Part shown: one piece after another, positions 27,061 through 29,401 of the stretch
Layout: every line of letters starts with the position of its first letter
How positions within the stretch are numbered: position 1 is the stretch's first letter
Assembly: GCA_035933635.1 (NCBI GenBank)
Contig: DASYYY010000021.1
Coordinates: forward strand, 86,918-150,917
Length of the DNA stretch: 64,000 nucleotides
From: Thermoplasmata archaeon
GTDB lineage: Archaea > Thermoplasmatota > Thermoplasmata > Lutacidiplasmatales > UBA184
Direction of reading: 5' to 3'
Translations under genes and position numbers: made by a program
Notes under the pieces: model-generated
What the model was told of the DNA's origin: nothing
Database searches by the model: none
What the model saw: the letters and a program-made list of their open reading frames with translations, nothing else

Positions 27061-27669
27061 TCAGAAGGGGCCGCGACCCGAGCCCCAGAGGACCAACCAC
27101 GCAGTGGCTAACACGAGTGAGGAGACAAAGCACGCAATCCAGAGAAACCTGAGCCGTAGAACAAACCGATGCGTGGAACCCCCAGCCTCCCCCGCCATTG
27201 TCCCTCTCACTCGTTTCGAGGTGAACGGTTTGAAGATGCTCCAGCTCGCGTCTTCTATTCCCAACGGAAGGGTTTCTATCTGGGCCTCGAGCAGGATTAC
27301 ATCCCGCTTCCATGTTTTGAGGGCTTTTTCATGCCCCTCTGCAACCTCGGCCCACTCTCGGCACAAGAAACCGCCGATTGCTGTGGCGCCCACCAGTCCA
27401 AGCAGTTTCGTCGGGATTTGCAACGGTGCGAGAAGCAAGCCGACGACCGACGCGGCGACCACGGTCATGATTGCTCCCCAGAGGGCTGATCGAAACCCAA
27501 GAACATCGTCCTCGTGGTGAATGAGTCTGGAGTACGTGTCGTGCAACCAGCGATACGAATCCAATTCCTCGCCGTCTAACCCACTCCTCAGGAAGCCGGG
27601 GACCTTACGCGGGCCTGTGAGATCAGTCGTCTGTGGTTTCGGATTCGACGTCCGAGTCACCCTCCTCAT
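27061..27669 (-). CDS. Hypothetical membrane protein
   Basis: Predicted TM helices [30 protein letters not shown] and [21 protein letters not shown]. Overlaps the 3' end of the MTase-Mrr gene by 47 bp, so an internal start is possible. Confidence 0.35.
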
Positions 27670-29401
27670 TCCGTAAGACGGCTTGGCCGGGGAAACCAGG
27701 AAGGCTCAGTTTTCGGATTCGAGTCTTTCCTCTGCTCCTCGAAACCGGAGCCGCGGGAGCCGGTTTGAAGGTCACATTCCGAAAAGGTGGATACGCCGGC
27801 TGCTTCCCCTCGAACAACTCCCGAATCGTGAGAATCTGGTACTTGTCGTACTTGTCATCCTGGCTGAGCCGGTACTCTGGCTTGTAGTAACCCATCCCGG
27901 CCGCCTCAGTCCGCATCTCACGGGATGGCTCATCGAGTGTCAGGAGAACTCCGATCTGAGCCTTCTCCCTCGTGATGACATGGGCAAAGTCTCGAACCTC
28001 GGATAGCTTGAGACTCCCCGACTTGACTTGAATCACGATTGTCTTGACCGAACCCCCTGCCTTCTCGCGGAAGAAGAGTTTCCCATCTACACCCGAGTCG
28101 GCTCCTTTCTTTCGCTCTTCGGCAACAGGCCGCGCTCCAATCCGTCCCAACGCCCACCATTGGAACTGGTATCTATCGAGGTCCCTAAGGGCCTCTGCGC
28201 CCCTCTCATCCTCAGGCTCGCCCACAACTTTGTACGAGACCCTATCGCCGTAGGCATCTCGCAATCGACTTCGGATTAGTGTGATTGCGAGGTGCGTGAT
28301 GTCGATGCCAATCCAGCGCCGCCCAAGATTTTGCGCGGCCGCAACTGTAGTACCGCAACCGCAGAATGGGTCAAGTACGGTGTCTCCCGGCTCAGAGCTT
28401 TCGGCGATTATTCGCTCGAGCAGAGCTTCTGGTTTCTGAGTCGGATAGCCGAGTCGCTCAGCGGAGACTGCCTCCAACTTTCGGATATCGGTCCAGATGT
28501 CCTGGACAGGCACGTCGGGGCTCTCGTCTAGGTACATCCGGAGTCTGATCGCCCCGTCCGGGGAGGATGGAAAGTGGAGACGCCCCTCGCGGTCGTAACG
28601 CTCCATGATCTCACGGCTAATGGACCATCCGTTGGGATGTGGCTTGTATCCCTTGTAATCGTAAGTCAGGTTCGGCCGTGGGTGGGGACTTCTCATGGTC
28701 ACTGTTTGGAACCTGCGGTACCCTGAGGGTGGGTCCTGCCCAGAAGCGATGGTGATCACTTCCTTGTCCGGGGGCGGGCCCTCAGCATATTTGAAAGACG
28801 CCTCGATGGACTCCTCGCTCCTTCGGACCTTCGGCGGATTCCACTTGAAATCCGGCGTCTTCGAGTAAAACAGAATCGCATCGTGGACGCGTCCGAGTCG
28901 ACCCGGATCGTTGTGCGCCGCCGTGCGACGCCAGACGATTTCGTTTCGGAAGTTTACTGGACCGAATATCGCATCCAGTAGGAGCTTGAGGTAGTGGCTC
29001 GCGGTAGGATCGCAATGCAGGTAGATACTCCCGGTGGGCCTCAGGACTCGGCGGAGTTCGACGAGGCGAGGCGCCATCATAGAGAGGTAGGCGAGCATGT
29101 CGCTCTCTCCGACCAGGGCGTGGAAGGCGCCCAGGGCTTCCGCCGCCTTTCCCCCGGCGTCTACTGTCTCATCGTAAGTATGGCGTGCGACAGAGTCCCA
29201 CTTCCACGTATCGCCGAACGCACGAATCTGAGCCGCGGATCTTGATCCGTCCTGCTCCGCGAAAAGGACGTTGTAGTCCTGGTTGGAGTTGAATGGGGGG
29301 TCGAGGTAGACGAGATCGACAGATTGACTAGGGAAGTACTCGGAGTTCCGGAGGATTTGCAGATTGTCGCCATAGTAGAGCATGCTAGGGGGTGTGGTCA
29401 C
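27623..29401 (-). CDS. Site-specific DNA methyltransferase (beta-class N6A/N4C; DPPF motif IV, FCGCGTT motif I) fused to a C-terminal Mrr-like restriction endonuclease domain
   Basis: [16 protein letters not shown] near the N-terminus, [27 protein letters not shown] later. C-terminal [12 protein letters not shown]...[10 protein letters not shown] matches the Mrr_cat (D...QxK) PD-(D/E)xK core. Confidence 0.8.

Follow-up and report, generated by a model that had tools for sequence, protein, structure and literature searches.

Does a DNA methyltransferase that ends in a restriction-endonuclease fold cut DNA as well as mark it? The question is raised by a gene in a 64,000-nucleotide stretch, hereafter the window, of the genome of a Thermoplasmata archaeon (Lutacidiplasmatales, UBA184; GenBank assembly GCA_035933635.1, contig DASYYY010000021.1, positions 86,918 to 150,917 of the forward strand). 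The product of this gene joins a beta-class N6_N4 DNA methyltransferase to a C-terminal Mrr-type restriction-endonuclease-fold (REase-fold) domain in one polypeptide. We find that the fusion is a member of a large, already-annotated family borne by mobile elements, that such proteins are common and not rare, and that the gene is self-contained, standing alone and travelling with mobile DNA. As to what the second domain does, we favour, at about even confidence, a solitary mobile-element methylase that makes N6-methyladenine and whose nuclease-fold domain is a non-cutting module for DNA binding or dimerisation.

The open reading frame (ORF) that begins with GTG contains an alternative ATG start at 29383, six codons further in, which gives a protein of 586 aa beginning 'MLYYGDNL'. 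The ATG is the more likely start, since it is the one called on the source contig and the one at which several homologues begin. A database protein with 100% identity is named 'DNA methyltransferase [Thermoplasmata archaeon]'. The first-pass annotation, made without database searches, had proposed a beta-class methylase fused to an Mrr-like C-terminal domain, and this architecture holds: both Pfam domains score above their curated cutoffs (for PF01555, 156.8 bits vs a cutoff of 26.7), and all four of the motifs it had named were located. The methylase is circularly permuted, with the catalytic motif IV (DPPF, residues 34–37; 29291–29302) lying N-terminal to motif I, which binds S-adenosylmethionine (SAM) (FCGCGTT, residues 346–352; 28346–28366). 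This is the order that had been described, but the distance between the two motifs is 312 aa rather than about 330 aa. A helical linker connects the methylase core to the C-terminal REase-fold domain, in which GADSGVDG occupies residues 433–440 and IVIQVK residues 455–460.

The methylase should be active, since DPPF and the extended SAM motif DPFCGCGTT are invariant across 26 homologues. A DPPF motif, instead of SPPY/F, points to adenine N6 as the target, and relatives are labelled adenine-specific by JGI; from these sequence features we infer that the enzyme modifies adenine. Among 26 full-length members, mean pairwise identity is 0.67 in the N-terminal methylase core, 0.72 in the C-terminal methylase core and 0.61 in the nuclease-fold domain, and it falls to 0.38 in residues ~185–300, where indels are frequent and 11% of the alignment consists of gaps. 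The aligned sequences thus give residues ~185–300 the pattern of an exchangeable target-recognition region set in a conserved frame.

The best structural matches of the whole model in Foldseek searches are the Mod subunits of Type III restriction–modification (R-M) systems (EcoP15I Mod, PDB 4zcf, E = 1e-20; 6k0w Mod, E = 3.5e-17), with M.BceJIV, RsrI and CcrM, small beta-class enzymes of Type II, coming next. Like Type III Mod, the fusion protein is a permuted beta-class N6-adenine methylase with a variable region in its centre, and it is similar in size; the likeness extends to the sequence, which matches over residues 4–360 and hits the PADLOC MTase_III models at 1e-42. Unlike a Type III system, it has no Res helicase-nuclease gene in the window. 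Nor was any match seen between the Mod structures and the C-terminal REase-fold domain, for which the structural matches were other proteins.

Two overlapping Pfam families describe that domain. Mrr_cat (PF04471) matches residues 427–502 with 28.1 bits, against a cutoff of 21, and NA-iREase1 (PF22722), the NACHT-associated inactive restriction endonuclease 1 family, curated as 'inactive REase', matches residues 428–504 with 31.2 bits, against a cutoff of 27. Foldseek agrees on the REase fold of the C-terminal part, at weaker scores. The key residues are F413-Q414 in helix 1, D435, D439 and Q458-V-K460. In a profile–profile alignment, D439, Q458 and K460 sit on the GIDG...QAK of E. coli Mrr (sequence taken from MG1655). 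With the fold detected and the D/Q/K residues in register with Mrr, the structural claim of the first-pass annotation therefore stands.

The judgement that such a fusion is unusual does not survive comparison, for the same architecture occurs in more than 100 close homologues and in the genomes of at least 596 species, as well as in plasmids and phages. The best 120 database matches, from archaea and several bacterial phyla, are near-full-length, share 54–83% identity and carry the same precomputed pair of domains; the methylase–REase-fold combination is already catalogued in databases. These matches bear the name DNA methylase or, in occasional cases, restriction endonuclease, and NA-iREase1 is precomputed on most family members. 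Searching with a profile built from just the C-terminal domain gave 4,060 clusters at 50% identity with E<=0.001, and 2,294 with E<=1e-10. In proteins of 390–600 aa the domain is found at the C-terminal end or close to it; P0194, in which it is mid-protein, is one of the listed exceptions. The species count comes from a scan of one genome per species and spans Planctomycetota, Acidobacteriota, Chloroflexota, Verrucomicrobiota, Gemmatimonadota, Actinomycetota, Proteobacteria and Nitrospirota, and also Thermoplasmatales. Full-length relatives were found on seven plasmids, including pMLa of Mesorhizobium japonicum, and in 28 Streptomyces phage genomes, where they sit beside a serine integrase and are annotated simply as DNA methylase.

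One of these phages, the temperate Likavirus OzzyJ, carries its full-length relative as gp49 (locus L016, 4965–6599), between the serine integrase and a ribonucleotide reductase gene. Relatives of this kind are 43–47% identical, and the phage offers a cultivable system for studying function. The accessions are AVE00430.1 for gp49, WP_044552088.1 for the relative on pMLa and WP_165137960.1 for one in Microbacterium amylolyticum.

The surroundings of the relatives indicate mobility without a fixed partner. Within the window, the gene is cargo of a 16.5-kb integrated element (26169–42687), and a 68%-identical relative lies in a syntenic element of another Lutacidiplasmatales genome (locus L014) that shares a Prim-Pol gene, a small methylase, a resolvase and an integrase. 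In two further loci (L001 and L015) the relative is found beside Cas1, and L001 also has a PolB gene and an island of SIR2 and methylase genes; other relatives occur in integrase-bearing islands or alone amid housekeeping genes. To look for partners, we took every ORF of 90 aa or more at 91 loci and grouped these by clustering. Leaving aside the target gene, the five clusters with the widest spread proved to be shadow ORFs, 89–96% of whose members overlap that gene. The most frequent true neighbour family was present in 8 of the 91 loci and consists of generic ABC ATPases whose distance and orientation vary; resolvases (5 loci), tyrosine integrases (4) and a transposase family (4) follow. No Res helicase, separate nuclease, ATPase–PIN pair or other partner recurs among these loci, and because no neighbour family is found in more than 9% of them, we regard the gene as standing alone.

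The reading that we favour has its observed basis in the domain composition and fold, in methylase motifs that are intact, in the mobile-element context and in the lack of any conserved partner; from this basis we infer a role in protecting the element and a non-catalytic state of the C-terminal domain. The enzyme would methylate adenines within a short sequence set by the variable region, on the DNA of both element and host, and this methylation would let the element escape restriction during movement or replication. The nuclease-fold domain would act as a non-cleaving module for DNA binding or dimerisation, in a role comparable to that of the extra domain of CcrM. CcrM-type orphan methylases (PDB 6pbd) are likewise solitary beta-class adenine methylases with an added C-terminal domain, and in CcrM this domain makes contact with the non-target strand's backbone and is needed for function, but does not cut DNA (PMC10359602). 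The fusion protein scores 84.8 bits against the CcrM model NF050803 of NCBIfam, whose cutoff is 830, and no relationship between the two C-terminal domains was detected. Moreover, CcrM is conserved by lineage and has a fixed GANTC specificity, whereas the fusion family is mobile and has a variable specificity region.

The alternative that fares best, and one that we consider possible but unlikely, is a single-chain R-M enzyme, functionally similar to Type IIC/IIG, in which the methylase and an active C-terminal nuclease of the Mrr type would both be directed by one variable region. A single mobile gene would then mark self DNA and cut unmarked incoming DNA, and so defend or stabilise the element. 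In MmeI-type enzymes, too, a hypervariable specificity region is set in a conserved frame, and the finding of that arrangement in a solitary gene also fits single-chain R-M enzymes. Because this gene is in all cases a solitary one, the fusion protein itself would have to contain whatever restriction activity there is. The patchy distribution of the family, with horizontal movement between archaea and many bacterial phyla, also resembles that of R-M genes. Type IIG/IIC enzymes of the BpuSI and MmeI type similarly have methylase, specificity region and PD-(D/E)xK fold together in one polypeptide, encoded by a solitary gene whose specificity is variable. The known ones, however, are laid out with the PD-ExK nuclease at the N-terminus, then a methylase of the gamma class, and the recognition domain at the C-terminus (PMC3185434, PMC4389544), whereas here a beta-class methylase with an internal target-recognition region comes first and the putative nuclease domain is C-terminal. 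Haloferax HVO_A0006 has no bearing here: it is a fragment, from the N-terminal side, of a gamma-class Type IIG enzyme of the classical kind (PMC4389544).

The choice between these two readings turns on the active site, whose conservation we scored on 268 members. Among known systems the domain comes close to the Mrr_cat family (E. coli Mrr; AF1548, PDB 1y88) and to the Mrr-like nuclease domains of LlaBIII, a Type ISP enzyme, and of MspJI and AspBHI, and its GxDxGxDG...QxK aligns with the GDGGIDG...QAK of Mrr; in these Mrr-type enzymes, however, the partner is a modification reader or a helicase and not a methylase. Two positions depart from Mrr. The middle position of the QxK motif, 458, is Ser in 165 of the 268 members (62%) and Gln in 103, and is never Asp or Glu, so that the canonical second carboxylate is present in none. 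At helix-1 position 414, which is Glu in the 'FE' of E. coli Mrr, the fusion protein has Gln, as do 241 of the 268 members (90%), with Glu in 23. Gln414 is paired with Ser458 in 152 members (57%), which leaves these with a single canonical carboxylate, and we found no compensatory covariation between positions 414 and 458, which might have signalled a working site, across the 268 sequences. The better Pfam score of the domain against a family curated as inactive counts in the same direction, as does the labelling of the family as plain methylases by databases and phage annotators. A PADLOC search with the isolated domain matched no Mrr or Type IV defence model. The domain does differ from the NACHT/STAND contexts of the NA-iREase1 family in following a DNA methylase and in keeping the D and K.

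Other observations weigh against a domain that does not cut. The fusion protein itself retains the exact Mrr-type configuration, D439...Q458-x-K460, which is active in Mrr and MspJI, and D435, D439 and K460 are kept in 266–267 of the 268 members (at least 99%). That D and K are retained does not in itself indicate catalysis, because 41 of the 150 positions in the domain are at least 90% conserved. In Cfr10I, as cited in PMC1189080, an S-x-K variant works with a carboxylate recruited from elsewhere, and by analogy D471, E479 and E499, each conserved in 90–96% of the 268 members, could be candidates for such recruitment. Our literature search also turned up neither methylomes nor biochemical work on any member of the family that would bear the methylase reading out. 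On the sequence data, then, the evidence for DNA cleavage is ambiguous and points both ways. A more specific proposal, that the family is an unrecognised class of single-chain R-M enzymes in which the carboxylate-poor D...(Q/S)xK site still cuts, perhaps by way of D471, E479 or E499, in which one swappable region sets both specificities, and which is carried by archaeal and bacterial mobile elements, plasmids and temperate phages, strikes us as rather improbable.

The first-pass annotation had also placed the gene in a co-regulated defence islet with the divergently transcribed ATPase–PIN pair and perhaps a 202-aa membrane ORF; methylation would mark self and the ATPase–PIN pair would act as effector. 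We consider this very improbable, and the comparative sequence data largely refute it. The genes are indeed adjacent and divergent in the same low-GC cargo region, with the reported gap of 238 bp confirmed when measured from the GTG start (256 bp from the ATG), and the ATPase weakly matches models of the methylation-associated MADS ATPase (NCBIfam MAD3, 3.6e-7; PADLOC mad3, 1.2e-12). It matches other PADLOC models far better: NsnB (3e-57), PDC-M55A (3.6e-52) and HEC-03B (1.8e-44). The PIN-like gene begins 5 bases past the ATPase stop codon. HEC-03 consists of an ABC ATPase and a PIN protein, and its defence activity has been shown experimentally to require both genes (bioRxiv 10.1101/2024.01.29.577857); from its profile matches, the pair in the window looks like an archaeal HEC-03-like two-gene module, carried as separate cargo of the element. 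The pair is absent from element L014, which keeps the methylase, and from the neighbourhoods in the 91 loci. A functional link to the methylase is unlikely, since HEC-03 is a validated two-gene system and the pair is missing from related loci. The PADLOC labels HEC-03 A and B seem to be swapped relative to the text of the preprint.

The 202-aa ORF fares no better as a member of such a unit. It is not in element L014, it is not a recurrent neighbour in the 91 loci, and a search of 5.8 billion proteins returned only the ORF itself. It had been described as overlapping the 3' end of the fusion gene, and the ORF as listed does so by 47 nt, but the 161-aa version called by NCBI, which starts at about 27546, does not. 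With its Pfam 8xMP match below threshold (17 bits vs 30) and no homologues, we rejected it as a membrane partner.

In Mrr, the task of reading modification falls to a separate N-terminal domain, not to the Mrr-type catalytic domain. The further suggestion of a modification-dependent or 'suicide' enzyme has scarcely any probability, even though the named proteins closest to the domain (Mrr, MspJI and AspBHI) are modification-dependent, given that these enzymes read the modification through a separate N-terminal winged-helix or SRA domain rather than the catalytic one (PMC12707154), that the N-terminal 373 residues here are a methylase and Pfam detects no reader domain, and that a methylase joined to a nuclease which cuts the methylated product would be lethal, at odds with the stable carriage of the fusion in hundreds of genomes and also on plasmids and in temperate phages.

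For the window, the outcome amounts mainly to correct annotation: the gene is mobile-element cargo and not part of a new multi-gene defence islet. More broadly, there are thousands of such solitary methylases, spread over archaea, bacteria, plasmids and phages, that have retained a nuclease-fold domain in strongly conserved form, and its role has apparently gone unexamined; literature searches for the N6_N4_Mtase–Mrr_cat fusion and for NA-iREase1 found no characterised member, no experimental study and no paper describing the NA-iREase1 family. If the domain cuts, these proteins would be single-chain R-M enzymes of a new architectural class, reprogrammable in their specificity and useful as reagents. 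If it does not, they would provide a clear case of a nuclease fold reused as the DNA-handling module of an anti-restriction methylase.

Table 1. Coordinates of the fusion gene, its parts and the other features of the element, in window positions.
Feature	Position	Strand	Basis and details
Methyltransferase–REase-fold fusion gene	27623–29401	−	ORF list; 592 aa from GTG
Beta-class N6_N4 DNA methyltransferase domain	28283–29320	−	Residues 28–373; Pfam PF01555, E = 1.1e-45
Variable region, putative target recognition	28502–28849	−	Residues ~185–300
C-terminal Mrr-type REase-fold domain	27812–28174	−	Residues 410–530
C-terminal tail	27626–27811	−	Residues 531–592; pLDDT about 30
Divergent neighbour, ABC-type ATPase (AAA_15/AAA_21 + DUF3696)	29640–31019	+	Pfam
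PIN-like effector gene	31024–31521	+	Gene call, 165 aa; PADLOC HEC-03A, 1.1e-5
Orphan ORF, 202 aa	27061–27669	−	Hydrophobic stretches at residues 61–93 and 169–198
attL-type 20-bp repeat, left element boundary	26169–26188	+	Exact 20-mer
tRNA-Ile(GAT) gene	42667–42743	−	ARAGORN; 3' end (42668–42687) is the attR-type repeat, right boundary
Putative integrase, adjoining the tRNA gene	41315–42622	−	phrog_1 integrase, E = 1.1e-10
Prim-Pol replication protein	37669–40059	−	Pfam PF09250; also in element L014
Second, small beta-class N6_N4 methyltransferase, beside Prim-Pol	36683–37723	−	Pfam, E = 3.7e-23
Serine recombinase (resolvase)	34689–35624	−	Pfam Resolvase, E = 1e-25; 311-aa gene call

The tail of the fusion protein is modelled at low confidence and is probably disordered. 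It holds a 'KLSLPGFxGQxVLR' stretch followed by an acidic end, and the stretch is kept only in the closest (Thermoplasmata-type) relatives and is absent from the bacterial ones.

The region that carries the gene is a mobile element in integrated form. An exact direct repeat of 20 bp (26169–26188 and 42668–42687) copies the 3' end of the tRNA-Ile gene, and its flanks are unrelated. GC content between the repeats is 62.9%, vs 69% on both sides, and the fusion gene lies in a GC trough. The 435-aa ORF that adjoins the tRNA gene has no Pfam match at E<=0.001 and, on its PHROG match, may be a divergent archaeal integrase. Four more ORFs of the element, of 163–205 aa, have no Pfam match (26344–26835 on the minus strand, 32022–32639 on the plus strand, 32655–33263 on the minus strand and 33372–33935 on the plus strand); the first of these has no match in NCBIfam, PADLOC or PHROG either, and all four are uncharacterised cargo. 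The small methylase stands beside Prim-Pol in the same arrangement in L014 and in a further locus, L006.

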